62,690 nt of DNA, filler included, from 15 parts of 15 records of this genome joined end to end with filler, not necessarily neighbours in it; one strand, 5' to 3'. Shown: positions 847 to 62,357, counted from the first letter of the whole stretch. Notes: generated by a model not told the origin, from the sequence alone. Numbers and translations are program-made.

Positions 847-3800
847 TCATCTCCAGCGCATCGACCCGGCTTGAGTCGAGATCAGCCACGAGCACCGCGA
901 GCTGGTCTGCTTGCACAATCGCCATGTGGTGCATAGTAAGTGCCTGTACTGGTCATTCACTACTAGCACGTTTACAAGGCAAATTGCCTGTAGCTGAGCC
1001 TCAGTGGCGCCAACAGTTACCGGCCCGAGGCAGCTGCAGCCCACCGCGTCATTCATTTTGACCCAACGCCGACCAATACCTTGCCATAAGCTCTCCTGTG
1101 ACCTCGACAACTAGCGCTGCATTCTCTCTCATTCTCAAGACGCAATTAAGGTACAACTCCAGTCGCTTCGGAGCGCCAGTGTTGCGTGCCATCACATCGA
1201 CTGCCTCCACTTGACTGTCGTGCAGCAACTGGCAGGCTTTGACAAGTCGTGTGCAGAGACTCTGCGCCTGAGCCACCACCTGCAGCTGGCCATCAGTACG
1301 CTAGGCCATCAATCAACGACCTCCGGGTCTGAGCACTTGAGATTGGTCGGAACCTTTAGAGGCGTGGCACTCTCAATCTCATTCATGAGCTCGAGTCCGA
1401 GGTTCTGGACAGCATTCTTGTCCTTGCTGCCGGCCCGCACCTGCCTCACACTGACACGACCATGCATTCCAGATCACCTTTGTATGTGCTGCGAGCGTGG
1501 CGAGCAATCGCATCTCTCTCAGGACTGGCTCGATCTGAGCGTCTGGATCTACACACCTGAGCGCCACTGTTTCAACAGATCAGGCGCATGCGCTCGCTCA
1601 CAGCACAAGCTCCACTCTGTGCGCCTGTTCAGTGATTGCGACCAGCCTGGCCAGCCCAGTTCGCTGCACTGCGATCCAGCTCTGATTATCCATGCTCAGA
1701 CCAGCCAAAGGTAGCTCAGCTTGTGCCAGCAGACTGATCAGCCCATCCGATAGCTGTACTGCATTCACCGCCGCAGCGCCAACCTAGATGTCTGTTAGAT
1801 GGATCATGTGACCACGCACCAGATCGTATTCGATTGACTCCGAGTTGTGATCGAGCACAAATGCTGAGTCCGATAGACCCTGGCTCCTCGCGGGGACAGC
1901 AAACAGTGGATGGTCGTACCTGCTGCAAGTTCAGGACCTCATCGGGTAGGGTCGTAGAGTGACTATTCAGAACTAAAGACTACTCGCACCCGAACCCGAA
2001 TCGCTCAAACAGCCTTGCAGCGAGCTGTGACTCTGGCCTGTGACCGGGTAGTCAGTGCTTGAGCCCTGCCAACAGCTTGCCTGCCGCGCAGCTGATCGAT
2101 GCAGCTGAGGATGCCGCTGCTCCCATTCACCAGCTCGATGATGGGTGTCCGTGACAGGGCATCCTGCCGTTCACACAGCCCATAAGTTTATCTCAAAGGT
2201 CTGCAGGATGTGAGCTAGGCGAGGCTAGTCTACGTAGCCAAGGTGCGCAGCCTTGCCTGATCTTGTGACGGCTCGAGACACACCGCCCTGGCAGTAGCCA
2301 GCCCTAGGAGTCGCTCAGCGAGAAGATTGCGCCACACTTTGGGTAAACCATCTGCCGGTCTGGCCCCTGACCGAGCCAACGGACTCGAATCCAACCCGCT
2401 CACCTGCCAAATGTCTGTGCACAACACCGTGAGGGCTGGACCTGCATGATCTGCAGTTCCGAGCCTGGTTTCGAAGGGGCGGTGCTCTTGTTCATCCGTT
2501 GGACCAGCCACTCCAAACCTGCGGCATACAGCCCGCGACACAGTGCATCCCTGCTGGCTGCACAGCCCTCCAACGCTCCAAGGTGCCACTCGGTCGGCGG
2601 GCAGCAGAGAGCTCGCTCTAGCGCCATCTGGTTCACACCAAGCGCAACCGCTGCGGCCTCTGTGGCTTCGCCGTTGGCCACCACGCATCTGGCCTCGTTC
2701 AACGGCTCAAACTGTACGTTGCCCAAGTGGAGGACCGCTGCCAGGATCCGCCAAAGCCCGGTCTGCTGCTTGCGCCCAACTTCAAGCACTGTCATCGCCG
2801 CCTGCAACTGATCGAAGTCCTGAACTTTACCGGGCGGGGCGCAGTCGGCCAGCGTGCGGAAGAACTGCCAGCCCTGTCCGAGTCCGAGCTGCGTCCTGAG
2901 CTCTGGAGGAGCCCCTGCCAGACACTCGATTGGGTCAGAAAATGGGCTCACCAGTGACAAGTTCGTAAAACACTCTGAAGTTGGACTGATCCGTGGGCGG
3001 CCCGATCAGTCGGGTCTCTTCGAGTGCCTCTAGACTAACCGTGAGCCCTGCAGCAGTTCGTTACCTGCATGGCCGTTGGGGACTGCCTGTGAGGGAGCCG
3101 TCTGCCCCGAAATGGACTGAACGCGTGACAACTGCCCTGGTCGACTCCGGGCTCCCAGGCAGCGCCGCGGTCAGCCACGACTGGAGCAGCGTGCTGGCCG
3201 CCTGCGTCCGATCCTCGAGGGGTATCGGGTCCGAGCGAAGCCCAGCCGGTGCCCTCGAGAATAGAAAGCTGACCGCCTCCGCAGCTGCCTCAGACTTGCC
3301 CGCCCCGTGTCGGCCATACAGCAGGACCAGCTGCGGAGAGCCCGAGCGCAGGCACCTTTCGGGTCAGGCTCAGAGTTTGGGTCAGGGCCACACACCGGAC
3401 GTACGCAGCATTCACTCGTTCAAATAGGTGGGGCGGCCGGTCGGCCCCGGAGCCGCTGCAGTACCGGCGTTTGGCCTCCTCTCCGTACAGCCCGAGTCCC
3501 GGCCGGACCAGCCCTTGAAGCAGCACCCCCTCGCCGGCGCTGGTGCCGGGCATCCTACGGGCCGCCCGCTCGCGCGTGTTGTGCGCTAGATCCGGGAGAG
3601 TGAGACGGTGCTCGGTGAGGTCGGCCGCTGTCCCCTGAAGCACTACGGCCGCTGCCGGTGTCAGGTGCCGCCGCTGGGTCTCAAACAGCTCGCCCGGGCC
3701 GACCAGCGGCGCCACCTGCGCTCGGTGAGAGCTCACCCGGGCCGGGCGGCACCGCGCAGCTCGAGCCGGCCAGCTCGGTCTCGAAGGCACACAGGGTGGC

Positions 3801-4432: not shown

Positions 4433-5085
4433 TCAGTTCTCTTGATCAAACTCCTTTGCGTCACGGAAATGCTGGAGCATGTTTACCACGTTCTTGTGCA
4501 TCACCATCACTCCCTTGGGCTTTCCGGTGCTGCCGCTCGTATAAAGTATGTATGCCAAAGAATCCGGCTTCTGTGATTCGGTCATGGCAATCCCGTCTTT
4601 GGCGGCTCCGGAGGTATCGCCAAGAGTTTTAACCAGATTACCCTGCTCGTCCAAGCAGATGACAACGAGTCCCTTGTCCAGGGCAACCTTTACCACTTGG
4701 GCGTCGCTTTGGGCCATCATGGTCACAAGGACGTCGCTTTTCGAGTCTTCAAAGATGTATTCCTGCCGGTCGAGCGGATAAACCGGATCGATGGGCACAT
4801 ATGCGGAGCCCGATTTCAGGATCCCGACCTGACCGACCAGCATGGCCAACGATCGGTCGACGTTGATGGCTGCAAAAGGTTGATCATTCTTGCCTGCGGT
4901 GGCCGCTCGAATTGCTTCGGCCACTGTGTCAGATCTGGCGGCGAGCTCCCCGTAAGTAAGATAGCGGCCAGTTTGGTCAAATTCGACCGCGACAGCACTC
5001 GGGTTGAAGGCGGCTTGCTCGGCAATAAGATCATGGATCAAGCGGGAATCACCGATCCCGATGTAGGGTTGCCCCCCCGCCGAAT
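4433..5085 (-). CDS. NRPS-type adenylation (AMP-binding) domain fragment; open at the contig edge and stopping just after motif A3
   Basis: LTYGEL (A1), ILKSGSAYVPIDP.YP..R (A2), LAYILYTSGSTGKPKGV (A3). The frame is open to the linker, then hits TGA at 4433-4435. Confidence 0.85.
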
Positions 5086-5612: not shown

Positions 5613-8600
5613 TCAGAACGGAATGCTCATGTCTTCATCTTGGAGGTTGCAAGCAGCAGCGACTGACTGCACTGAAGCCGGCACTTGCAGCTCGAACCAG
5701 TCGGTCTTCCCACGATCAGCGCGCGCAGCATAGATCGCCTCCTTGACCGCAAAGAACGCCGAGATGGCCAGCGGCATCGCCGGCTCCGCGCACGCCTGTA
5801 GGCCGACTCAGGCCAGCCTGGATTAGTTTAGTTCCTTGGAGCCGAGGATCGAGTTGCGTGAGGTGTTGCGGTGTCCCTCGAGCAGTGACACGTTGAGTTT
5901 GATTGGGATGTCCAGAGCCGACGGGATCTTGTAGTTCCAGCTGCCCAAGTTAAGCTGCTCACCCGCAGCCGACCAGAGCATCTGCCGACACCAGGTTTGG
6001 CCATTCAGCACGCCTCCGGGCACCTCCTCGGTGAGCAGGTAGCCGAGCGCCATCACGTAGCCTCCCTCGAGCTGCCCAATCGCAATGTCTGGATTCAGCG
6101 GCTGGCCGAGGTCCATCACGATGTCAGTCTGGAGGATCTGCACCTGAAACAGCCTCTATCAATATACCGGTCTGACCCTGGTCGGTACCTCGCCAGTGAG
6201 GACGTCCACTTCGGCCTCGGTGGCTGCAACTCCGTACGTGGCATAAGCGTTCAAGTTGTCGTCGGTCTTGTTGTCATACCTACGCCTCGCGTGTCAGACA
6301 CAGTTTAAACTAGAGCTATATACCAGCCCGAAGCCGACAGCGGCTCGCCGGCAGTCAGCGCCGCAGTCACTTGATCCGCGAACGACTGGCCGGGCTTCTG
6401 ATACTTGGCCAGCGTGCTCGCAAGCGAAGCGCACGCCTGCCGGACTGCTTCGGCAGTGCATTCGGTTGTGCCACTGCCGCCAGTCCCGGTGTTGTTGGGT
6501 GTGGTGGCCGTGTTGGTGTCTTGGATGATCACAGCACTGAGAGGTACTCCAAGTGTGCCAGCAGCCACCTGAGCCGCCACTGTGTTGAGCCCCTGCCCAA
6601 TCTCGCATCCGCCGTGCGACACGGCCACAGAGCCATCGGCGTAGATGTTGACGAGCGCGCCGGACTTGTAGAATGGCAGGCCCATCCCGTACTTGACCGG
6701 CTGGACGGCGAGCCCACGCTTGCGCCACTTGTTAGCAGCGTTGAATTGAAGCACGGTCTGCCTGCGGGCGGCCAGCTGGGCCTGTTGCTCGAGCTGGGAG
6801 AGCAACTGTGGGATGGTCCAGTCAAAGTCCTGAGTCCCGATGTGGTCCCCGTACGGGGTGGTCTGGCCACTCTGGTACAGATTGGCTTGCTGCACCTGCC
6901 AGTGCGGGAGCCCCACTGCGCGGGCAGCGCGCTCGATCACCACCTCGTGGATCAGCTGCGACTGGAGCACGCCCGGGGCTCGCTGCGAGGTGAAGTGCAC
7001 GTGATTCGAAGTGACCGGCTTGCACTGACAGTCGTAGCTAGGCGTGTAGTACACGTTGTCCGAAAACTGGACAGCCATGGTGCCATCACCCACACACTCG
7101 CCCACAAACGGTCCGCAGTCCATAGAAAGGGCCATGCTCAGCTGGTTTATCTTGCCGGTGCTGTCGCAACTGGCCGAGTACTTGGTGCACTCGATCGGCT
7201 CCCGGCCTCCAGTACTTCTCATATCCAGCACCTGCACCCACCGGCTTGCCCCAGACAGCAAGCGCGCACACCCGCTCATTCTGCACTGCCACTGGCCGTC
7301 CTGCCACCGGCTCACACAGACCCGCTCCAGGCCAGCACCGTGCTTGATTGCTGCGACAGCAGCCGCGGCCGCAGCTGGTGCCTGTCGATTGAGCTTTCCC
7401 CCAAACGCGCCACCCGCTCGGCGCGTGGTCACAGTCACTTTGTGCTGAGGCAGGCCGACCACCGCAGCCACGGCGTGGCAGGTGTAGGCAGGGTCCTGGG
7501 TCGAGCAGCTCAGCTGCAGCCGGCCCTCATTCGGCACAGCCAACACTGATTGCGTTTCCATGTACCTGCCAGACGCTGGCCGCTCGACCCGGCTGGCCGC
7601 ACCAGTGGCTCTGTCCGCCAGTGGCCAGCGAGCCTTCAAAGCTGTGCGCTGACTCGCCGGGTGGCTGCTCGCCGCTGGCCACTCTGACAGTCCCGTCGTG
7701 ATCCGGCTGGTCCAGCTGGGCCTTGAGCACAGGATGCACCCGCCGCCGGACCAGCCCCTGCCCGGACGGCGTCAGCCCCGGCCGCTGCTGGGCGTACCCC
7801 TGTCCTCGCCAGCGTGTCGATGGTCTCGCGGATGGGCTGCGGGCTGGGTTGCCGGCCCGGATGACTCGAGTAGCTGATCTGTACGGCTTGGGCAGCTTCA
7901 CGAGCACCGGCCTGCCGCACTGATCATGCCCTGGTTGGACGGCCGAGTGCGAGCACCTGGCTGTTGGCCAGCACCAGTGCGACCGCGGCCCCCTGGCTCC
8001 AAGAGACGTCACCAGGCCCGAAGAAGAGTGGCTCCTTGAACGGCAGCTGATTTCGCTCGGCCGGCAAGTCGCTGGCGGTGAGCACGTCCACCACTCCGGG
8101 CATCCGGAGCGCTTGGTCGGTCTGAACCGCCTGGACGGTCCCACCGGCCTGCTCGGTCACGGCCAGGGCACCAAATAGCGCGCCTTCGGGCAGCTGATCG
8201 CTTGGGTAGATGGCTTCGCCAGCCGCCTGCACAAGGTGAGAGCACGTTCAGGGAGGCCTGACTGGCCTGCTCGAGCGCTGATAGCTTGATCACCGGCTGG
8301 CCGATCGGACCGGTCACCGGCTGGAACTGCTGTTTGCCCGACGAAACGGGGCGGTCCTCGGCTGCAGCAAATCCCTCTATGGCAGACTGATACCGTGACG
8401 GGAGCGGCCCGCCGGCAGCCAGGAGCCACTTGTACAAGAAGCCCTTGGCCAGCCGGAGCCGGTACTCTGTCGAGCTGCGCGGGTCGGTGTTTGGACCGTT
8501 GGCCGACACATCTCTCTCGATAGCTTTGAGTGCGGATGCCAGGCTTGCGGAGCTGACTGGCTGGCCAGCGAGAGTAGCCTCGGTCTGAGTGGCCCGGAGC

Positions 8601-9830
8601 AGCCCCCGGTCGAGCACTCCGCCGATGAACAGTCGGCAGGAGGCCAGTTTGTGCTGAGGGTCCAGGCAGGCGCTCATGGCCATATTGACAATTGCGTGTG
8701 AGTTGACGTGACGCTGTGCTGTCTTCTCAGACCGGAACAACGTGCCAGTCAGTGGCGGGACAAGGCCCTCGAGCACTAGGCTGTACTTGGGGCAGCCATC
8801 CGCCACCAGCCGCTCCACTGGCACGCTCTCTGTGTGCTCAGCAGAGCTGGCCAGCGTGATCGTCACGCCGGCAGCAGCAAAGACTGTTGCGATGTCTGAG
8901 CAGAATGCAGGGTGGCTCGAAGCCAGGACCAGGTTGCCGGCCCAGCTGCCCACGCTCCGGACCTGCTGATTAGCTACCCGTAGCAGGTGCCGACGGACAG
9001 CCTTCTGCCCTGCACTCCCCTGGTCCAGCTCTGCAATCAGCCGCTCCAGGGAGACCCCTCCCCCCACCCGCAGACTGCCATCCGGCTGGCGCGAGACCGC
9101 CTGCAGCTCCGTCAGGTACGACAGGTCCACAGTCTGCCCGGTGCTCGCCCCGAGCGGCCCGTAATACTTTGCCACGCCGATCGAGGTGTTGGCCTGCACC
9201 AGCCGGATAGGCTGCCCTGCCTTCTGGGCGGCGGACATGATCGGCCACAGCTGGGCCAATTGGCGGGGCTGCCAGAGCTCGAGCTCGCCGTTCGAGTACT
9301 TGACCAGCTGGCTCGAGCCAACTGCGCTGGGCTGCGGCTCCACTGGTGGCTGCGGCAGATCGAGCAATCCTTCCATCCCCTCGAGGATAGGGCGGTAGCC
9401 AGTGCATCTGCAGAGGTTGCCGTCGCAGGCCTGTTGGAGCTGGGCCTTGGTCGGAGCCTCGCCTTGCTGGAGCAGGCTCCAGATGTTCATAACCCAGCCG
9501 GGTGAGCAGTAGCCACATTGACTGCCGTTCCCGAGGGCCAGCGCCTTTTGTACTGGATGGTACCCTGCCCGGGCTCCGCCGAGGCCTTCCACCGTCATCA
9601 GATGTTTGCCGGAGACGCTCACCAGCAGCCGCAGGCACGAGTTGATCCCCTTCCACCCGGTCTTACCGTCGTCCGACATTGCCACTGTGCACGCCCCGCA
9701 GCCGCCCTGCCCCGGCTCGGCCATTCACCGCTGGCGGGCACCTCGTTGCAGCCTTGTTTGGTACCGGTGAGCCGGGCCCCCTCCCTCAGCCAGTGCACCA
9801 GCAGTGTGCTCGGCTGCCCCCCAGCTCGCC
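5613..9830 (-). CDS. Molybdo-flavoenzyme of the aldehyde oxidase/xanthine dehydrogenase family, about 10 introns, 5'-truncated
   Basis: 2Fe-2S motifs GTKQGCNE|GGCGACTV, QCGYCSPG and GNLCRCTGY; FAD region; Moco motifs GGAFGGK, RAPG, EIGQGLNT, DIAIGQLEGG and GSK|ACAEP. RAPG and the lack of Glu after GGK (GGKLN) resemble aldehyde oxidases more than XDH. Confidence 0.93.
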
Positions 9831-25080: not shown

Positions 25081-28000
25081 CTACAACATGAATGTCGCTT
25101 CCTTCGACCCACGCGGTCCAGAGGTGGGGGCGGCATCATCCGGCTTTTGGGCCAGCTGGTTTCGCTGGATAACCACATTCTCCCTCGGGCCCATGCTTGG
25201 CACTTGTTTCCCCCGGAACCAAGGGCCTGCCTGCTTTGCAAATCCAGGCTTGGCCTGGTTCCAGTCATATCTAAAGTCATTCTCAGACGACTTGGCGCCA
25301 AGCTCAGTCCTTCCAAGTACAATGTCCTGAGCGTTGGCCACGTCTTGGTACTCATTTTCTGGGTCGGCCACAGCACGCTTCACCTGGGAGCCCTCTTTAG
25401 TGAGCCAGCTCTCGAGTTGGACGTTTTCGAAAAGCGAATCTCGTCTCTGCGAGCCAGGGGTGCGGATGGCCTCCACCAGTCCAGGCCGGAAGACAGTGAG
25501 ATATGATTTGTAGGTGAACTTTGGGAGCATGCACACTACTATAGTGATGGGCACGTTGAACCAGAACCTGGTGACTGCCGAAACTATGTACATGCCCATG
25601 TATCCATCCGCGTTGCCATCTACGTTGTTGAGGATTGAGGCTGGCAGGGCAGTGTACGCGTATGCAAAGACAAACCAGAGGGCAATCACTGCCCAGTATG
25701 CCCAGTGGTGGTACTTGGTGAAGTGAAGCGTGTCGATTGCCAGCCGGAAAGTCACAATCACAATCAGACTGGTCATGCAAATCCAGCCCAAATCGATCAT
25801 GCCCAGACTTTTGCCGTCGTTGCTCACTGCGTTGGCCATGTAGAAGTAACTGCAGACGTAGATCATCGCAGCAGCCCAAGCGCCATCGAGACACCAGATC
25901 CCGAGCGTTGTATAGTCAAACAACTCGTTTGTGTGACCCTTCTTGTACAGTGAAGGGTTGACAAGTGAGTTCTCTGCAGAGACATCTTGCTCAAAGAAGC
26001 CGATGACCAGCACTCCAAATGATGAAAAGATGATATTGTACAGTGTGGCAACCATATTGTCGTAGAATAGAACTCCAGAAAATCCAGCAGTAAACGACTG
26101 AAAGACAAGAGTGTAGCCGTAGATGATACTCTTGTAGAAGAAGTAGTTGATAATCAAGGCGAGCCTGTAATACAGCCACCGGCCATGCACGAGCATCAGC
26201 CTGAGCAAATATTGAAATTGAGTAATCGCAAAATCTGAATTGTTCACAGCTTGCGTGCCCTCGAGCCCCGCAATTCCAATGCCAACATGTGCCTCCTTAA
26301 TCATCGACACGTCATTGGCACCGTCACCAATTGACAGAGTGATCTGTCCAAGTTCAGTCTTCAGCAGGTGGGTGATTTCCTTCTTTTGGACTGGCTGCAG
26401 CCGGCAGGCCACAACGCTCTTGAAATCCTTTGCCAGTTGAATAAACTGCAATTGGCACTTGCGCATTGCCAAGAGATCATCGGAGATGTTATGCGGGGTT
26501 GGATCGCCGCACACCTTTGCCTTCAGACCATCTCTGGCTTGCTCGGCAGCCTCGATTTGGAACAGCTCTGTTTCAGTGATACATCCGAATCCCATCTGCT
26601 TGAGAGCAGCAGCTGGGACAACGAGCCCGAGGCGCTTGTGTTCCATCATGTCGACGGGCGAGAAAGCAACATAACGATCCTGACACGCACCCGTCATTGG
26701 GAGCCGAATTGACGAGGACGCCCACCTGAGCCCGGCTGTCTAGCTGGTTGAAGGATTCCTGGCAAATGTCGGTGAGCCAGCTGAATTCTTCGTCCTCTGC
26801 CGCCTGTACCAACAGATAATTAGACACACAGGAAGAAGGGGTGGCGTATCTGTACCTCGCCTGCCGATGTTGCACGGTTCAGGCCGTCTGCTGATGTGCA
26901 TTGCCGGTACCAGCGGGTGTCAGATACGATCTGCTTGCGGATCTGCAGTGTGTGTCAAGCGCACAGCCTTGATCCATTCTAGCCGAGCAGCCAGGGCTCT
27001 TGAAAATCTTAGTGGCAAGCTACCGGGCACATCTTGCGGCCAGTAGCGTAGTAGTCCGTTATTGCCTGAAGCTGACACATGTGCCTTGCCACCAAGCGCT
27101 GTGCATCGCTCATGCCTGCAATCACAGTCAAGCTGTGGCTGCAAGCAGGCAAGCAAGCAGAGCGGCTGGTTGCTAAGCTACTCCTGCTTCTTAAGCAATA
27201 GTTAGGCCTGATCAGGCAGCGGCTCAGGGATGGCGTTGGGCACCGGCAGGATCAAGGACGGTTGCATCTGGATCTGGATCAGTGAACGGCCACACAGTCT
27301 GTCCCCCAATCAGCACCCCAACCATGCTGGTCTAAACCTATACTATCAGCCCTAGGGTAGCACGATGGTCACCTGGTCCATTTTGACTGGCCCGAGGTAG
27401 ACCAGGTCCATCTTGGGCCACGGCCTGAGCAGCTGGCACGCGTGGCCAATCATGACTGCGGTCTCCACTTTATCGCCGGTGCACATCCACGTGTGCACTC
27501 CGGAGTCGGCTAGGGTGGCCAGCACATGTCCCACGTTCTCCTGCAGCCGGTCTTCAATCCCGACCGCGCCCAGCACATGAAGCCCGCCCCCGTGTGCCAG
27601 CCCGACCTCTGCCTGATCACGAAGCGCCTGCATTTGAGCCTCGATTTGCTCCTTGGGCGACATACTCGAGTACTTTCTTGGGCTAACAGCAAGCGTGCGC
27701 GGAGTGAAGGAGCCAGCATCGGGAGCCTTCAAAGTCTGTGGCATTTTGCCTGATTTCTCGGCTTGGAGGATCATTTCCCACTTGGGAGCCCAATTGTCGA
27801 ACTCCTCCTGACTCATTTCACGGCTGGCGTACATCATTGTCCGCAGACCGGAGGCTGCCATACTTGTGACATGATCCATCGTGTGCTTGAGCCGTTCCGA
27901 CGTATCGCCCGACTTCTCAAGCATCTCAATGATGACTGAGTCGGCACCCTTGAGGAACACTTTCAACGAGCCGTCCGGCATTCTCACCACCACACCGGCC

Positions 28001-28654
28001 CGCTTGAGGTGCGAAGTGAACTTGAGACTGTACAGTACCTGGAAGCTGTGCTGCTGGAACTGCATTGGGTGGCTGGGAACCAGCGTCTGCTGCCGCTGGA
28101 TGACCTTAGTCACGTGCCGGCTCAGCTCCATCGCCGGCTCGACCGGCAGTCCGGCCACCACGTCTTGTGAAGTCTGCTCGGACCGGCCGCACGCGATGTT
28201 GACTTTAAACTCCTTGCCCTTGTCGTTGGACTCGAGCGCGGCGAATTCGAACCCTAGATGCCGGGCCGCGAGCACCAGAGCCGAGTCGTCCGGGCTCTGC
28301 GCCGAGTAGACGATTTTGTGCTCCGAACTCTCGTCGTGCAGCGGGACGACCTCGTGGCAGAGCGACATGGCCAGCAGAAGGTCCTCGGCGTGCTGCCGCT
28401 CGGTCTCGGTCAGTTTGCCGTTGTTCTCGGACTTGAGCCAGGCGTAGTCACTGATCCTCCGATCGTAAAAGAGGAAGTCTCGCATCTGAGTCTGTGAAGA
28501 TTCAAACAGCCTTGGGCTGGCGGGGGGCGACATGTTTGGATTCTCCTGCTTCTTGATCTCGAGGTCCACTTCGGTCATGCCTTCCCCGTACATTTCGGGG
28601 CCGCCAGTTGAGAGCTTGAGCAGGGCCATCTTGTTCTGGGTGAGCGTGCCGGTC
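25081..28654 (-). CDS. P4-type phospholipid-flipping ATPase, 5'-truncated, multi-exon
   Basis: TGTLTQNKM at the contig edge, YSAQSPDD, LKGADS, GLRTM, IEDRLQ, WMCTGDKVETA, VACRLQPVQK, IGDGANDVSMI, YFFYKS and C-terminal TMs. Confidence 0.95.
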
Positions 28655-51790: not shown

Positions 51791-54700
51791 ATCCAGCGGC
51801 GGGCCTGCAAGCAGGGGTTCGAATGCTGGTCTGGGCTGCTCCCGTCTGGGATTGATGCCCATGGAACCCAACTCAAGGAGGTCGATCACTACATGTCTAG
51901 CACTTGGGAGCTGCCACGTCAGCCGGCAAGAACCGGTCCAAGCGAATCTGACAGTTGCCGATTTGTGCTTCGCCAGCTTTTGCAGGCACTCGGGATCGCT
52001 GTGCTGCCGTGTTACCTGTTTGTCTTGGCATTACCCTCGATCTACATCATGCTTTATACAAGTATTTGGCCGTCAGCCCTGAATGGGTACCTGGCCCTGC
52101 CCGCCTTTGGCTTCTTGTTGTTACTGCTGTATTTTGTGGTGCAAATGCTGATGTTGGTGATGATGCACTGGTTGCTGGTCGGGCATCTGTATCATGGACA
52201 GCAGTGCCATGTGCACTCATGGCTGGCGGTCAGGATCTGGTTCACGGACTGTGTTGGTGGTCAGGTGTTTCTGCTGTTAATTTTGTTTCAGTACACGAAG
52301 TTCAAGCCTTACTACATGCAACTACTGGGAGCGCGAGATTCGATGAATTCAACCAGCTTCGGTCGGTTCCAATTTAGCATGGCGAGTCTCGTCGAGATCT
52401 GTGATAACACCTTTGTTAGCAATGCCCAATTCGGTACAAAGTCCAGTGTTGGCGACAACATGCTGCAATTTAACACAGTGTCCATTGGCAGATTCTGCGA
52501 CGTAGCCCTCAAGAGCTTGGTGGCCGGCACCGTGAGCGACCAGAGCATGGTGGGCAGCTTGGTATGGATACCAAAGGACCGAGTGGTACCATCCAAGCAC
52601 ACGGCTCTTGGGACACCGGCCAAGTTCGTCCAGATGGGCTTTGGGAGCGGGGATGTTCCAAACCTTCCTCAAACACCCTGGTTTGCAAGAGCCGCGCTCT
52701 ATGTTTACACAGTGATTGGAGTTCCGCTGCTCTTTTGTGCGGCACTGCTACCAGCGTATGAGGTGCTCTGGACGTACGACCGTACCACCCTGCAGTTTAT
52801 CGTAGGCGGCTGCAACCGTCCTAATTACCTGTATCAGTTTGGCCGCGAAGACTTATCACATCAGCAGTGCATCGACCTGGTGTCGCAGGTGGTCTGGTCG
52901 GTGTTCGACCCCTCAGATCCTAAACAGACGCTGGAGCGGCTGGTAGTGTACTCGTGCGCATTGTTTCTGATGCTGCCGGCCACCGCTGCGCTGGAAGTGC
53001 TCCTGAAGTGGTGCATAGTAGGGCGGTATCAGATTAGTGAAACCACCAGTTCCGATCCCGGTGGCGCTGATTCGCATGTGGCCCTGATGTTGAAGAACTT
53101 TATGTATCTGACTTTCCATTACCGGGCAGGCTTTGGTCGTCTTCAGCAGCTGCGCAGCACGCCCTTCTGGACCTCCTTGCTCCGGGCTCTCGGGTCACAG
53201 ATTGGGAACCGCGTATATAGCGACTCCTTTTCTCACCTCGACTTCGACCTGGTGTCAATTGGGCAAGGCAGCTGCATCAATGCTGGGTGCTATGTGATCG
53301 GGCATGCATTCCAGTACGGGGGTTTCCAGTTCAACGAGGTGTCCATCGGAGACGAATGTAATGCCGGCTGCGGGGCACAGATTGTGCCCGGAGTGACTTT
53401 ACAGGATAAGAGCAGCCTGTGTGCCGACTCCAGGGCGTTCAACGGCGAGGTACGCCAACCCACAGTTTGCTTGCGCTGATCAATGGGTGGGTCCAGGTGC
53501 TCGAGGAAGGGTCTGTCCATGCCGGAGTGCCTGCAAAACGGATGCTTGGGGTGAGACAGGCAATCGTGCTTGGTCCGAACGAGCAAATGCAGCCTACGAC
53601 TCGGCCGGTACACGCGACAGAAGGCAGGGCCCTGCCAGATGCAGACGAGTCCCAGAGACTGCAGGAGGAAATCGCGCTGCTGGCCATGCCCAGGGAGGGT
53701 GGGAGCCGTTGTGAGCAGGCGGTCTTGGCGCTGCGGGTAGTACAGTGCTTTCAGGCGGAGCTGCTCGCCTGGGCTGTTACCCGGAACGTCCAGGCGCATA
53801 AGCGGCTCTCCCAAACTGGACAGTTCAAGCAGTTCGAGACCCAGCTGGCCGCGCTGGTTCGGCTGTTTGAGCAGCTCCTCGACCAGCCTGTCGGCGACTA
53901 TCTGATGCAACAGTACGCGTTGCTCGAAATGGCGTACTCGCTGGTGCGCCGTGGCTCTAGCTTCTTTGGATCACGGTACATGGACAAGGAGCACAGCTGC
54001 TCGAGGCACGTTGGTCTGTTGGAACAGCTGCGCAGCATTGAGGAGCCATTGGCTCGATCTCAGACGGTGTTAAATGGACTAGATGATGGATGGCTACCTC
54101 AAGCGTTGGACATAGTCGGCCCGATCGAGAGGCTCAAGCAGGCAGCTGCCGTCGCCATCCTGAGAGTAGCCGAAATGGTGGCCAATGATGTTGAGTTGGT
54201 GAGGTTCCTGCACAACCAGGCCTTGGTACATGGGTTACGTGGGCACTGGCTTGCCGCATCGGTCCAGACACGTGAGGAGTTAGGCGGCCCGAGCGCTGAA
54301 TATCATCAGGCGGGCAAACAGTTCATGGAAGAGGTGTCACCGGGCTTGATGAGCACCCTGGAGAGTTATTGTGCGGCCCCTAGCCGAGCAGGGTGGCAAA
54401 TGTGTCTCGATGAAGTTCGGGCCAATCCAAGCTGCTTGAGGTTGTTGTCAGACAGGCGATGCAGCATGAGGCAGTTTCTTCGGGTCATGTATGCACTAAC
54501 CCAGCAGGAGGCAGACTTGGCTCAACTGATCGGATATCAAAACACTCTCAGCCGCATACCGCTCATGATGGCGTCAGACAAGATTAGACACGCCTTTGGT
54601 GAGCTACCCATCGGCTCTTATATGCTGACCGAAGAAACCGCTGGCAGCGACATGGCGACAATCAGTGCAAGTGTCGGCCAAAATCAGTTGTCTGGGACGA

Positions 54701-55647
54701 AGTTCTGGGGAGGCTTTGGCTGTGGCCGTGAAGCCTACGGAGATAAACTGCCCGTAGATTGGTACATAGTGTCGGCAGTCAATCAGCACACGTCCATGTG
54801 GGAGCTCGTCCTGGTCGATGGGGCTTCAAAAGGTGTCACCGTCGATTGCCAATGGGCGACAGCCGGGCTGTGCAAAACTCCTTTTGCACAGGTCACATTC
54901 AAGGATGTCCCTGTAGCCTTCTCTTGGGGGCAGACCTCCTGGCCAGTTGCATTGCAGACCATGAATATGACACGGTTATGTATTGGCGTTGCTGCATTGA
55001 GCACGCTCGACCGTGTTTGTGCGCTGGTTGGGGCCCAAGAGAACTACAATGCCATGACGCTTGGGACTTGCCGGGGCTTTGTCGAGCATGGTCTTAGTTT
55101 GCTGGATGCACTACTTTCCCCGGATGCCAGCGCAACTGATCCGCTTGATATGAACGTTTGCATAGCCATCAAGGTGCTGCTTCCAGACTACGCATTAGCA
55201 TTTGCAGAAGACTTGTCGTTAACACAAGGGAAAGCGGCATTTAGCGATGCCCAGAGTGAGTTCGTTGGCGAGAGCTTTCGCGGACATGTGGACAACCTGC
55301 GAATCTTGTGCATCTTTGAAGGTCCAAGTGAACTCTGGTATTCCGAACTGCTCAAACTGGCGAAGGATTTTGATCTTACTGAGAAGATGGCATTGTACCA
55401 GCCCAAAGAAGCAGCGCACTACATTGCATTGAATATTCTCGATGCCTTTGTCTCAAGACCTCCCGTGGAGTCCTCGGACAGTCAAGACGAGGCATTGCTG
55501 GGATCGAGCCTAAAGCGAGTGGGTCTAGAAGTAGATGCGAGCACAAGTGTACCGAAAACAACACATGCTTGGGTCCGGGCAGAGCAGGCGCGAGTGTGGG
55601 ACACACTATCCCGGTTCTGTAAATACAGTAACCTGACACAACCCTAA
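51791..55647 (+). CDS. Fusion of NRPS-terminal/Pls-like (TM + left-handed beta-helix) modules and an acyl-CoA dehydrogenase-like domain; 5'-truncated; intron at 53450-53496
   Basis: Two copies of TM pair + 'Y/FxxLLGA' + hexapeptide repeats (VSIGRFCDVAL..., SQIGNRVYSDS...DLVSIGQGSCIN...VSIGDECNAG). A 47-nt GT-AG intron restores FNGE|VLEEGSVHAGVPA. ACAD motifs follow: YMLTEETAGSD, GTKFWGG, VTFKDVPV, TRLCIG, LRILCIFEGPSE. Confidence 0.8.
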
Positions 55648-55665
55648 ACCTAAACCTAAGTAGAC

Positions 55666-55974
55666 ATGGAGGAAGAGAATAAGGAGAATTCAACTGCGGC
55701 AGATGGTATCAAAATGATCAAGAGTATACCAGTAAGCATACAGCTTGTCGACCTCTCCCAAAACCGCATTGGAAAAATTGAAAAGTGTGTGGTAAAGGCT
55801 GATGCGGCTGCAGAGGAGGCTGCAGAGGCTGCAAAGGAGGTTGCAGAGGAGCCAGCTGCAACCGACATGCGCGCATATTCTCTCAAGCAAGCCCACGCCT
55901 TCAACCAAGATCTGAGCGGATGGAAGGCACTTAGCTGTATTTTATTTTCAAGTTATCTTTATTCACTCCATAGT
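55666..55974 (+). other. Short mosaic ORF (LRR-like and BspA/DUF285-like fragments)
   Basis: LVDLSQNRIG, an A/E-rich stretch and TDM...AHAFNQDLSGW within about 100 codons. Confidence 0.35.
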
Positions 55975-60065: not shown

Positions 60066-62357
60066 TCAATAGCGCGGGCCTAGATGCAAGCTTGGCGCTG
60101 GCCATGGATGCCGTTGAGGCTCGTCCCTGGGCCACTCCCTCGGTCCATCTACATCCTGCCACTCCCTTTCGCGCCCACGCGAGAACCGCCACTCCCTATC
60201 GTTCCACTCTCTTTCGTGCCCCCCTTGCCCCAGCGAGCAACCGTCCCGCCACTCGCTCTCCTGCCGATGGGCATGCTCGCCCCTCTCTTGCCACGAGATA
60301 TGATCTGGCCTCTCCCACTGGTCCGACCCCCAGTCAGGCTCCCGCCGCCAACGCTCCGGGGGCGACTGCGACGGCCTGTGTGCGCTCATCGGCTGCAGCT
60401 GGATTGGCAAGCCCGCCGATGGCCGCCTATCCCGGGTGGTCCGCCGGCTGGGCGGCTCCGCCGGCTCCCTCGGCCGTTTTCTGTTGCTGTTTATGTACTG
60501 AGGCTCTGGTCCGTTCAGCCCGCCGTGCTCGGCAACTAGGTGAGCCCGCAGCTGCCGGTACCCTTTAAATATTTGGGCATCGCACTGGGCCGGCCGGGTC
60601 AGCCGCCAGAGGCATCCGCACTTGCCCTCCTTGAGCCGGCTCCTCATGGCTTCGCGCATTGGGAGGTCCGGCTCTTCATCCTCGGCCGGCGGCTCGTCAG
60701 CGCAGTCCGGGCCGTTAACCCCCCGGTGCTTGGCCACAAGGTGCCGCCGGAGCGCTTCGTGGTCCTTGAACCAGCGGCCCGGCTTGCATTTGGTCGGCTG
60801 GCTCAGACTCCACAGGCAGGCGCACCCTTTACCACGCACCAGCTTACTCCGTTTGGACTCACTCATGGGAGTGTCCTCTTGAGCTCTCCGGCCTTCTGCT
60901 TGGCTTACTCCGTCTCGAGCGGAGCCACAACTGCGATCACAGTGCGAGCTGCTCTTGTCGGCCAATCCTCGGAGCGAGTCCAGGATTAGGCCCAGCTCCT
61001 GTTTGGACCCGCCCAGCTCAGCATGCAGCCCGCGCACTCGGCTCACGAGCGTCTCTGGCCTGAACAACTCCGCTGACCTCGACCCGACTATCGCCCGGCT
61101 CAGCTCTCTGCCCATCCCACTGATTCTGCTCTGCAGCTCGTCCGCGGAGCTCGTATTGAGCAGCGCCGCCAGCTCGGTCCCGCCGGTCGGCCCGGCTGCC
61201 GGTTTGGGAGCGGGCTCGAGCGTTGCTGGAGGGACCTGTATGCTCGGGAGCGACAGGAGAGCAACCCACTGCACCGGCTCGCACTGGGGGGTGGCCGAGG
61301 CCGGGGCGTCCAGGTCGACCACCGGCGGGTTGGCGGCGGGCAGGTAGCTTACTCCGTCACGTATGCTAACTGAGAGCTTGCTCTGAGGCAACACGTGAAG
61401 CAGCCTGAGTACCAGCTCATCCTGCCGGAGCTCATCGGCGGCCAGAGGCAGCGAGCACTGCGGGCAGCGCGGGTTGTCTGGGCACTGGCGCCACCCGGCG
61501 GCGTACGTGGCCAGTTCAAATACCTCGTGATGCCGGCAGCGCAGCCCGCGGCACGGGACAGACAGCCGGACCCGAGAGTACCCATCTATAAGCGGCAGCT
61601 GGGCCGTCGCCACCGCCAACCCGTCGCTCACGGCTAGCTCGCGCTGCTGGAACTTGGCCAACGCCTCCGAGAACCCTAAAAGCGGCACGCGCACTGGGCC
61701 GGTCGGAGCCCCGGCCGGCTCATCAGCCCGGCGAGCTGCGATCACTGAATCGAGCAGCTCAAGCCCGTCGCGGTCAGAAGGGGCCAGGGCCACAGCAGCC
61801 CGGCAGTCCTGCTCGGCCTGCCGCCACTGTTTGCCGTCCAGGCGCACCCGAGCCCGGAGCAGCAGCGGCCCGGCCGCCTCAGGTAGGAGCTCGGCCGCCA
61901 TATTCGCCGCCTGAAGCGCCGGCTCCGGACGGCCGAGCCTGTGCAGGACTCCAGCCATTGCCAGCCCAAGCTTGCCCTGGAACTCGCGCATCCGAGCCGC
62001 CTGATCCGGGGTCGGATCCCCAGGCAGCTGCCCGAACTGTGTGGGAACGTAGTCAGCGGTCTCGTACTCGTCTAGCGCAGCCCCGAGCTCCCCAGCCTCG
62101 GCCCGCTGGTCCCCGGTGGCCTTCTTCTGCATCCCGAACTGGATCAGCTGCTCGAACGCGTCGGACGGCTCGGCCGCTGGCTTGAGCTTAGACGGGCGGA
62201 TCCTGAAGATCTTGCCAGAGGTGTGCATCCGGACCACCCAGCGACCGACCGCCGGGATCCAGTGCAGGCAGGTGCACAGCTGGCCCTCCATCGAGCGGTC
62301 CGACAGACCCTCGGTCCGCACCACCGCACCCGCCTCCAAAGGCCCGGCACTCTCCAT
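60066..62357 (-). CDS. Multidomain protein: TPR + MIZ/SP-RING zinc finger + HhH-like + two C/H zinc-finger-like repeats + R/E/W-rich tail
   Basis: TPR helices (LLLRARVRLD...AEQDCRAAVALAP); SP-RING pattern PCRGLRCRHHEVFEL...CPQC; LNTSSADELQSRISGMG (HhH-like); intronless 763-codon ORF. Confidence 0.75.
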   Translation of the reverse strand: MESAGPLEAGAVVRTEGLSDRSMEGQLCTCLHWIPAVGRWVVRMHTSGKIFRIRPSKLKPAAEPSDAFEQLIQFGMQKKATGDQRAEAGELGAALDEYETADYVPTQFGQLPGDPTPDQAARMREFQGKLGLAMAGVLHRLGRPEPALQAANMAAELLPEAAGPLLLRARVRLDGKQWRQAEQDCRAAVALAPSDRDGLELLDSVIAARRADEPAGAPTGPVRVPLLGFSEALAKFQQRELAVSDGLAVATAQLPLIDGYSRVRLSVPCRGLRCRHHEVFELATYAAGWRQCPDNPRCPQCSLPLAADELRQDELVLRLLHVLPQSKLSVSIRDGVSYLPAANPPVVDLDAPASATPQCEPVQWVALLSLPSIQVPPATLEPAPKPAAGPTGGTELAALLNTSSADELQSRISGMGRELSRAIVGSRSAELFRPETLVSRVRGLHAELGGSKQELGLILDSLRGLADKSSSHCDRSCGSARDGVSQAEGRRAQEDTPMSESKRSKLVRGKGCACLWSLSQPTKCKPGRWFKDHEALRRHLVAKHRGVNGPDCADEPPAEDEEPDLPMREAMRSRLKEGKCGCLWRLTRPAQCDAQIFKGYRQLRAHLVAEHGGLNGPEPQYINSNRKRPREPAEPPSRRTTRDRRPSAGLPIQLQPMSAHRPSQSPPERWRREPDWGSDQWERPDHISWQERGEHAHRQESEWRDGCSLGQGGHEREWNDREWRFSRGREREWQDVDGPREWPRDEPQRHPWPAPSLHLGPRY

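Follow-up and report, generated by a model that had tools for sequence, protein, structure and literature searches.

Synthetases of the Pls/PosA type are NRPS-like enzymes (NRPS, nonribosomal peptide synthetase) that make cationic homo-poly(amino acids), in which an A domain and a T domain are followed by three successive units, each composed of a pair of transmembrane (TM) helices and a beta-helix. The cationic polymers that they produce, diamino-acid homopolymers joined by isopeptide bonds, are antimicrobial and, to our knowledge, all characterised members end at the terminal domain formed by these units, which in the TIGR02353 family description is always the last one. In the architecture described in PMC10522769, the six TM helices of the family are grouped in pairs, between which the three units C1 to C3 are placed, and the AlphaFold model of the PosA terminal domain published there consists of three five-turn left-handed beta-helices with approximate three-fold symmetry, the membrane polymerisation domain being presented in that source as still without an experimental structure. 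Eukaryotic homologues are in print as well, as fungal Epls (PMC7179176) and as family members from 'Amoebozoa, Metazoa, Alveolata' or 'lower eukaryotes' (PMC10522769). A second set of enzymes of relevance here has the fold of the acyl-CoA dehydrogenases (ACAD) and acts in trans: PigA/RedW, an L-prolyl-peptidyl carrier protein (PCP) dehydrogenase, TcsD, which acts on acyl-acyl carrier protein (ACP)/acyl-CoA in the FK506 pathway, and ColB1, which acts on an assembly-line-tethered cysteine, are all free-standing proteins of about 380 residues. Here we analyze a stretch of DNA of 62,690 bases (the window, hereafter), positions 51791 to 55647 of which appear to carry the 3' part of a gene in which a Pls/PosA-type terminal domain is, very probably, fused through a 47-nucleotide (nt) intron to a divergent ACAD-like domain.

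The gene lies on a contig of 4.2 kb (window 51791-55974), delimited by artificial spacers, and its frame is open from base 51791. The two exons, hereafter open reading frames (ORF) 1 and 2, the candidate intron between them and the regions that can be told apart in their predicted products are listed below; features were assigned with a hidden Markov model (HMM) of 33 relatives and other tools, including AlphaFold2 (AF2).

51791..53449, plus strand: exon 1 of 553 codons, its frame open at the contig edge; encodes the last two of three units of TM pair and left-handed beta-helix (TIGR02353; HMM of the 33 relatives)
51974..52192, plus strand: first TM pair on the contig, residues ~62-134 (hydropathy maxima 2.28 and 2.53; aligns with the TM region of the family)
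52313..52645, plus strand: C2-type beta-helix unit, residues ~175-285, ending in ...HTALGTPAKFV (HMM positions ~985-1085)
52682..53023, plus strand: second TM pair, residues ~298-411 (hydropathy maxima 2.18 and 1.81)
53153..53449, plus strand: C3-type beta-helix unit, exon 1 part (best TIGR02353 stretch; Hexapep at residues 517-543)
53450..53496, plus strand: candidate 47-nt GT-AG intron (GTACGC...CTGAT...TCCAG) with an in-frame stop inside (sequence; family homology)
53497..53553, plus strand: first part of exon 2, which completes the C3 unit with 19 residues (VLEEGSVHAGVPAKRMLGV; HMM positions 1307-1325, high posterior probability)
53554..54462, plus strand: ~300 residues, predicted helical, without fold or family match (Pfam, NCBIfam, Atlas, AF2)
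54463..55344, plus strand: divergent ACAD-fold domain, ORF2 residues 323-616, spanning the last part of the N-domain, the middle beta domain and the helical domain at the C-terminus (hhalign, Pfam, HMMER, AF2, Foldseek)
55345..55647, plus strand: C-terminal tail of ~100 residues with low-confidence helices, and the stop codon (sequence; AF2)

By sequence comparison, the predicted product of exon 1 is the C-terminal part of an NRPS-like terminal domain of the Pls/PosA type. The NCBIfam model of the Pls/PosA NRPS terminal domain, TIGR02353, matches it in two stretches (E 1.6e-37, 129 bits), the best of which pairs residues 385-552 with model positions 519-681 of 695; against a curated equivalog cut-off of 423 bits these 129 bits indicate homology and make no equivalog call, a score below 423 being expected because only two thirds of a divergent domain are present. 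In the HMM built from 33 relatives of 1285-1966 residues, the closest of which is 24% identical, residues 54-572 of the spliced product align to positions 853-1325 of 1334, and the part contributed by exon 1 (residues 54-553) to positions 853-1306. In a Kyte-Doolittle analysis with 19-residue windows, TM-like segments came out as two pairs (residues 62-134 and 298-411), and this arrangement, together with the HMM positions, places units 2 and 3 of the terminal domain on the contig. Pfam Hexapep was recovered weakly at residues 517-543 (E 4e-4, below the gathering score) and had no match in the C2-type unit (52313..52645). Precomputed Pfam annotations of the 33 relatives comprise AMP-binding in 33, PP-binding in 28 and Hexapep in 30. 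The product shares with the Pls/PosA family, as described in PMC10522769 and PMC7179176, a membrane-embedded terminal domain, TM pairs that alternate with left-handed beta-helix units and a C-terminal G-x-P; it differs in its identity of at most 24%, in an insertion of ~45 residues within the second TM pair and in an extension of ~700 residues, and also in that only units 2 and 3 are found on the contig, with A-T not in cis there. The insertion (residues ~333-377, 52790-52930) separates the helices of the second TM pair with respect to all 33 relatives in the HMM alignment; Cys and aromatic residues abound in it (GGCNRPNYLYQFGREDLSHQQC), and it would face the non-cytosolic side. Judged by eye only, an E-x-W-x-G within the first 53 residues of ORF1 resembles the end of the C1 unit of the family.

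The C3 unit is interrupted by the candidate intron 19 residues short of its end. With GT at 53450-51 and AG at 53495-96, excision joins the two frames at a codon boundary and takes with it a TGA stop (53477-53479), and a branch-point-like CTGAT is located 17 nt ahead of the AG. The C-terminal motif of the 33 relatives can be written KGE-x-[LV]P-x-x-[ST]-x-W-x-G-x-P; exon 1 ends in ...NGE, VLEEGSVHAGVPAKRM follows directly after the AG in the other frame, and VLEEGSVHAGVPAKRMLGV matches the motif. The family HMM assigns 162.7 bits to the spliced product versus 147.4 to exon 1 alone and 149.4 to a read-through to the stop at 53479, so that splicing adds 15.3 bits and reading through 2, because exon 2 supplies the conserved C-terminal motif of the family. 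When 4150 stop-free, frame-restoring deletions starting within 53400-53480 were scored, the top score (91.3 bits) corresponded to a 47-nt deletion with seven equivalent placements, one of which is GT-AG; the chance of finding a GT-AG among seven placements is ~3% (7 x (1/16)^2, for a uniform base composition). Among the 17 GT-AG candidates in the same scan the 47-nt intron scored best, the next reaching 82.7 bits (8.6 lower). A contig from a public DNA sequencing run, X1, which may be the source sample, spans 53339-53623 with 0 gaps and retains the intron, which is therefore no assembly frameshift. By these homology criteria the 47-nt intron appears to be real and constitutes a supported splice candidate. 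An earlier note on this DNA, made from its sequence alone, had proposed a frame open from the contig edge, two TM plus beta-helix units of the kind that ends Pls-type NRPSs and a 47-nt GT-AG intron that links this frame to a downstream one, and the three proposals hold in the light of the spacers that delimit the contig, of the hydropathy pairs and family models and of the deletion scan, respectively. As for a second intron of the organism, the brute-force list of GT-AG pairs between neighbouring ORFs was too ambiguous to define one, and the 'host-style' character that the earlier note ascribed to the 47-nt intron is thus putative.

The same region could be read as two separate genes, a terminal-domain gene ending at the TGA of 53477-53479 and an ACAD-like gene starting at the ATG of 53542, with a merely coincidental intron. 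Such an arrangement would agree with the presence of that ATG 45 nt into exon 2 (ORF2 residue 16), with the tight packing seen downstream, where 18 nt separate the ORF2 stop from the next ATG, and with the fact that 31 of the 33 relatives end at most 64 residues past the terminal domain, which is described for TIGR02353 as always the last one. It would also agree with the comparison of four RNA runs, in which no RNA contig bridged the junction, the uncovered parts being no evidence either way. On the other hand, an unspliced protein would lack the terminal motif of the family (G-x-P-A), which is found in the other frame exactly after the AG, and the bit scores obtained for splicing and read-through, the first rank among 4150 junctions and the distance to the other GT-AG candidates all speak for a junction at this point. 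To these may be added the CTGAT and, as a weak hint, a 39-nt RNA unitig with 3 mismatches that ends exactly at 53449. Two independent genes consequently seem improbable to us, and we consider the predicted fusion of the terminal domain with the ACAD-like domain to be a strong candidate interpretation.

If the intron is spliced, the terminal domain of this Pls/PosA homologue is not the last domain of its protein, since 697 residues follow it. The two exceptions among the 33 relatives are P0018, a metagenomic protein with a 453-residue tail that contains HGSNAT_cat, and P0022, with a 282-residue low-complexity tail. An ACAD tail was found in none of the 33 relatives: the comparison of ORF2 with the tails of P0018 and P0022 and with the other 31 proteins gave a best phmmer E of 1.9. 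P0018 does illustrate that a domain of the tailoring type, in this case a membrane acetyltransferase, can follow the terminal domain in this family. The added domain itself differs, having no similarity to ORF2. In full-text literature searches, no paper was found on a Pls-type terminal domain or NRPS fused with an acyl-CoA dehydrogenase domain, and the remark in the earlier note that the architecture was not known to its author from any characterised protein agrees with both results. Because eukaryotic Pls homologues have already been published, it is only the fusion that would be new. The family network in PMC10522769 used only sequences of 1100-1800 residues, and length-filtered surveys of this kind would miss such fusions.

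Exon 2 comprises 716 codons, from 53497 to a TAA at 55645. A HMMER search of 1.84 billion representatives returned a single match to it, P0034 (E 3.8e-5), a 540-residue ACAD from Streptomyces with all three Pfam ACAD domains. Aligned with hhalign, a 77-member profile of the P0034 family matches ORF2 residues 323-616 over 282 columns with 98.5% probability (E 2e-15), and on this comparison of profiles the downstream region can be assigned to a genuine ACAD-fold domain with a predicted catalytic-Glu motif. The motifs TEETAGSD (from 54628) and IFEG (55312-55323) align with the matching motifs of this bona fide ACAD family, E608 of IFEGPSE falling on the 99%-conserved E380, which we take to be the catalytic base (the position that E376 occupies in MCAD, the medium-chain acyl-CoA dehydrogenase). 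The invariants of the P0034 family that are kept include E143, G147, K170, G209, R259, K337, G356, R374, G381 and E384; in ORF2 numbering, the kept residues are T378-E379, A382-G383-S384, K402, W404, R493, K559, G578, R602 and E608-G609-x-x-E612. As in MCAD structures, the kept residues presumably surround the isoalloxazine ring and the catalytic base. Pfam detected Acyl-CoA_dh_M in ORF2 (E 8.3e-6, 26.3 bits, below the gathering score of 33.3), and the only NCBIfam match was the prolyl-PCP dehydrogenase model RedW (E 0.014). Hence, the ACAD motifs that the earlier note had pointed out downstream, IFEG included, are borne out by the profile alignment, and the domain models that it had named for checking gave a mixed outcome: TIGR02353 was matched and so was Acyl-CoA_dh_M, the latter below its gathering score, and Acyl-CoA_dh_1 was not. 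A word-indexed search of 5.8e9 proteins, confined to similar lengths, found no match to ORF2 at E <= 0.001 among 7999 scored candidates, and scans of JGI metagenomes, one for each half of the fusion, returned no relatives of either.

Structure models of ORF2 are congruent with this assignment. The AF2 model of residues 241-716, computed from an ACAD alignment, presents the order N-alpha, beta, C-alpha with a predicted local distance difference test (pLDDT) of 75.3 and a predicted template modelling (pTM) score of 0.79, and residues ~241-322 are modelled, at lower confidence, as the start of an ACAD N-domain. Foldseek relates this model to at least 369 PDB entries at E <= 0.001, with probability 1.00 to many ACADs; TcsD (6u1v) ranks first (E 9.8e-12), PigA (5zw0) 21st and ColB1 (7xp7) 50th. 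The ~300 residues predicted as helical between the terminal and the ACAD-like domain, of which the earlier note made no mention, gave nothing in Pfam and NCBIfam (ORF2 residues 20-322) and no usable match in Atlas (residues 20-250), and a single-sequence AF2 model of residues 20-322 had a pLDDT of 41. A search of Atlas by features with residues 20-365 returned clusters of ACAD N-domains at 0.83, a value that is also attained with shuffled proteins in one case out of three.

The degree of divergence of this domain suggests an alternative explanation within the same fusion, namely that the ACAD-like domain is a degenerate pseudo-enzyme no longer able to bind flavin, whose role would be structural or in oligomerisation (ACADs occur obligatorily as dimers or tetramers) or would be to provide the synthetase with a platform for docking. 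Out of 94 columns conserved at 85% or more in the P0034 family, ORF2 keeps 33; the invariant R284, Q353 and G359 are replaced by N518, L575 and A581, R377 corresponds to a Cys, and the N-domain lacks a 28-residue segment through a deletion. The equivalents of R284, Q353 and G359 presumably correspond to the residues that in MCAD contact, from the partner subunit, the adenosine (ADP part) of flavin adenine dinucleotide (FAD). In addition, Pfam ACAD N and C domains were absent from ORF2 at E <= 1, so that the middle domain is the sole match, itself below gathering, and the divergence is extreme, with one match in 1.84e9 representatives. Against a pseudo-enzyme stands the nature of the kept set, which consists of flavin-proximal and catalytic elements (T378-E379, A382-G383-S384, K402, W404, R602 and E608-G609-x-x-E612), a pattern of retention that looks like selection on an active site and not on a scaffold alone. 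We regard the pseudo-enzyme as an unlikely outcome that nevertheless deserves serious consideration, and the assignment of the ACAD-like domain as a catalytically competent flavin dehydrogenase as tentative, the kept residues making it possible without tipping the balance in its favour.

The family of P0034, whose proteins of ~530 residues are annotated as 'acyl-CoA/acyl-ACP dehydrogenase', is the only family detectable by sequence for ORF2, at ~22% identity. Its own C-terminal extension of ~150 residues has no match in ORF2. In NCBIfam, P0034 is matched best by RedW, the prolyl-PCP dehydrogenase, and 190 proteins match P0034 at E <= 1e-10, the named members being mostly from actinomycetes, myxobacteria and cyanobacteria. 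Among the 120 matches listed, 11 carry PP-binding, one of them (P0084) being also fused to a fatty-acyl-AMP-ligase (FAAL) part, and none presents a fusion to a Pls-type terminal domain. Through such fusions of some members to carrier proteins and to parts of a FAAL, a link with assembly lines exists within this family. PigA/RedW, TcsD and ColB1 share with ORF2 the ACAD fold and the Glu of the I-F/Y-E-G motif, whereas the ORF2 domain is fused behind a membrane domain and lacks equivalents of the three invariant residues discussed above. The Foldseek E-values do not set PigA, TcsD and ColB1 apart from ordinary fatty-acyl ACADs, and the likeness considered here is one of fold and motif. A putative action of the ORF2 domain on a phosphopantetheine-tethered thioester is backed indirectly, by the RedW match, by the first place of TcsD among the fold matches and by the context of the fusion.

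The window itself consists of 15 contigs (3.0-5.7 kb each) that were joined artificially by spacers of the form N44-TTAATTAATTAA-N44 that place stops in six frames. The GC content of the contigs ranges from 0.53 to 0.64, and they may come from more than one genome; third-position GC content (GC3) and codon composition were not discriminating, since the window contigs vary widely. Features of the window outside the fusion are the following.

4436..5085, minus strand: N-terminal part (217 residues) of an NRPS-type A domain, its frame open at the contig 1 edge (family HMM E 9.2e-39, positions 21-198)
8009-9724, minus strand: xanthine-dehydrogenase-type domains (Fer2_2, FAD_binding_5, CO_deh_flav_C), an ordinary eukaryotic gene
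25081-28629, minus strand: P4-ATPase flippase over two ORFs, an ordinary eukaryotic gene
60066-62357, minus strand: SP-RING protein, an ordinary eukaryotic gene
55666..55974, plus strand: next gene, a leucine-rich repeat (LRR)-like ORF running to the contig edge, outside the fusion (ATG 18 nt past the ORF2 stop)

Other window contigs thus carry eukaryotic genes, including those for a P4-type phospholipid ATPase, xanthine-dehydrogenase-type domains, an SP-RING finger and LRR proteins. Parts of the fusion contig recur in public metagenomes and metatranscriptomes from marine, seawater or estuary samples; the highest share, 0.42 of the sampled words of the contig, is that of a DNA run. Pieces of ORF2 of 151 nt, with 0-2 mismatches, occur in polyA-selected metatranscriptomes from two studies, and pieces of ORF1 in one cDNA run. 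A marine microbial eukaryote fits as the source of the gene, as the intron, the eukaryotic genes on other contigs and the ORF2 pieces in polyA RNA all agree with it, and the eukaryotic origin supposed in the earlier note is in line with the same observations. A further possibility is that of an artefact, in which the contig would be a chimera formed in metagenome assembly or a contaminant from bacteria, and its halves would not belong to one genome. The composition of the window from short contigs with uneven GC, the A-domain fragment that abuts unrelated DNA on contig 1 and the fact that the organism-named relatives of both halves are bacterial except for one oomycete protein (for the P0034 family, among the matches listed) are compatible with such an origin. 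Nevertheless, contigs of the DNA run X1, which is possibly the source sample and hence possibly not independent, tile 52034-54940 with gaps of at most ~400 nt, the largest lying at 54352-54747 between listed pieces, and include the contig over the junction; the spliceosomal-type intron and the ORF2 pieces in polyA RNA libraries likewise speak against contamination or chimerism. Furthermore, family homology crosses the intron into the ORF2 frame, and a chimeric join therefore cannot sit at the junction. An artefact is, in our judgement, highly improbable.

Upstream domains were sought in the rest of the window. A T domain was not found in it by family HMM in a six-frame scan, and the only candidate for a missing part is the A-domain fragment of contig 1, which in tblastn shares 34% identity with P0001 (E 1.6e-25), the best partner of both this fragment and the terminal domain. 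The fragment cannot be joined with the contig of the fusion: its ORF stops at 4436, the remaining domain, with the part that confers specificity, is not on contig 1, and ~530 nt of AT-rich DNA lead to a myosin-like gene. The fragment could possibly be the 5' end of the fusion gene on a misjoined or repeat-broken contig, or else a paralogue or a remnant. Myosin-motor-like fragments on the minus strand at 2400-3400, with a GAGKSE P-loop-like motif and LHLGNVQFE, are in different frames, which suggests an intron-containing myosin gene or a misjoin of contig 1. At the other end of the fusion, ORF2 finishes in three in-frame TAA codons spaced by ACC (the further TAA at 55651 and 55657), with telomere-repeat-like CCTAAA units. 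A 33-nt removal that would join ORF2 to the downstream LRR ORF was considered and rejected, because the three codons indicate that the stop is genuine. The stretch 55665-55923 is covered by RNA contigs of runs X10 and X11, the one from X10 beginning at 55665, and the 18-nt spacing between the ORF2 stop and the next ATG suggests either extremely tight genes or polycistronic transcription.

Taken as a whole, we favour, with some reserve, the proposal that the locus is the 3' part of a gene of a marine microbial eukaryote in which a Pls/PosA homologue is spliced to an ACAD-like domain for in-cis dehydrogenation. Besides the points cited in support of two genes and of a pseudo-enzyme, several results weigh against this proposal. 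The A, T and C1 units are not on the contig of the fusion, X1 contigs begin at 52034 and none passes either end of the stretch, and the first 53 residues of ORF1 have no match to the family HMM. Linkage between window contigs is weak, because they are short metagenome-type contigs with GC of 0.53-0.64, and contig 1 passes from the A-domain fragment into unrelated DNA. A phmmer search of ORF2 against PDB sequences gave 0 matches at E <= 10, and the match to the ACAD fold is not independent of sequence homology, because the AF2 alignment consisted of ACADs. Finally, no ORF2 orthologue that could show conservation of the fusion was found in the searches reported above. The reading advanced in the earlier note, that of the C-terminal part of an NRPS-like polymer or lipopeptide synthetase with built-in oxidation, is supported in part: A and T domains upstream, FAD binding or oxidation by the ACAD-like domain and a polymer or lipopeptide as product are putative. 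With these points taken into account, an A-T-C1 portion probably lies upstream of the contig edge, and the fusion is best described as a predicted new architectural variant of a known family, represented by a fragmentary gene and with a putative activity.

Within the proposal of a spliced fusion gene, the topology of the terminal domain is informative: each TM pair brings the chain back to the membrane side that it came from, and the ACAD-like domain would therefore lie on the same side as the beta-helix units and the presumed A and T domains, presumably in the cytosol. The A domain would charge the T domain with an amino or acyl substrate, bound as a thioester, and the terminal domain would transfer this substrate to an amine acceptor and release or export the product. 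Provided that flavin binding is retained, the ACAD-like domain would dehydrogenate the carrier-bound thioester in cis, that is, it would play the role that the stand-alone PigA/RedW, TcsD and ColB1 play in trans. In its most complete form, which we advance as speculation and consider rather doubtful, a single polypeptide of a planktonic eukaryote would combine A-T loading, amide formation and export by C1-C3 and a flavin dehydrogenase, yielding an oxidised cationic amide polymer or conjugate at the membrane. Its product may be, for instance, dehydro-amino-acid-containing or of the pyrrole type.

We know of no NRPS-like enzyme with such an assembly-line logic. If the proposal is true, an ACAD-type domain in cis would allow Pls/PosA-type synthetases to give rise to tailored, oxidised products, under a single-polypeptide logic undescribed for this family. 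It would also represent a new coupling of a redox step to a membrane-bound, thioesterase-free release, in a lineage of marine protists that has almost no sampled relatives.

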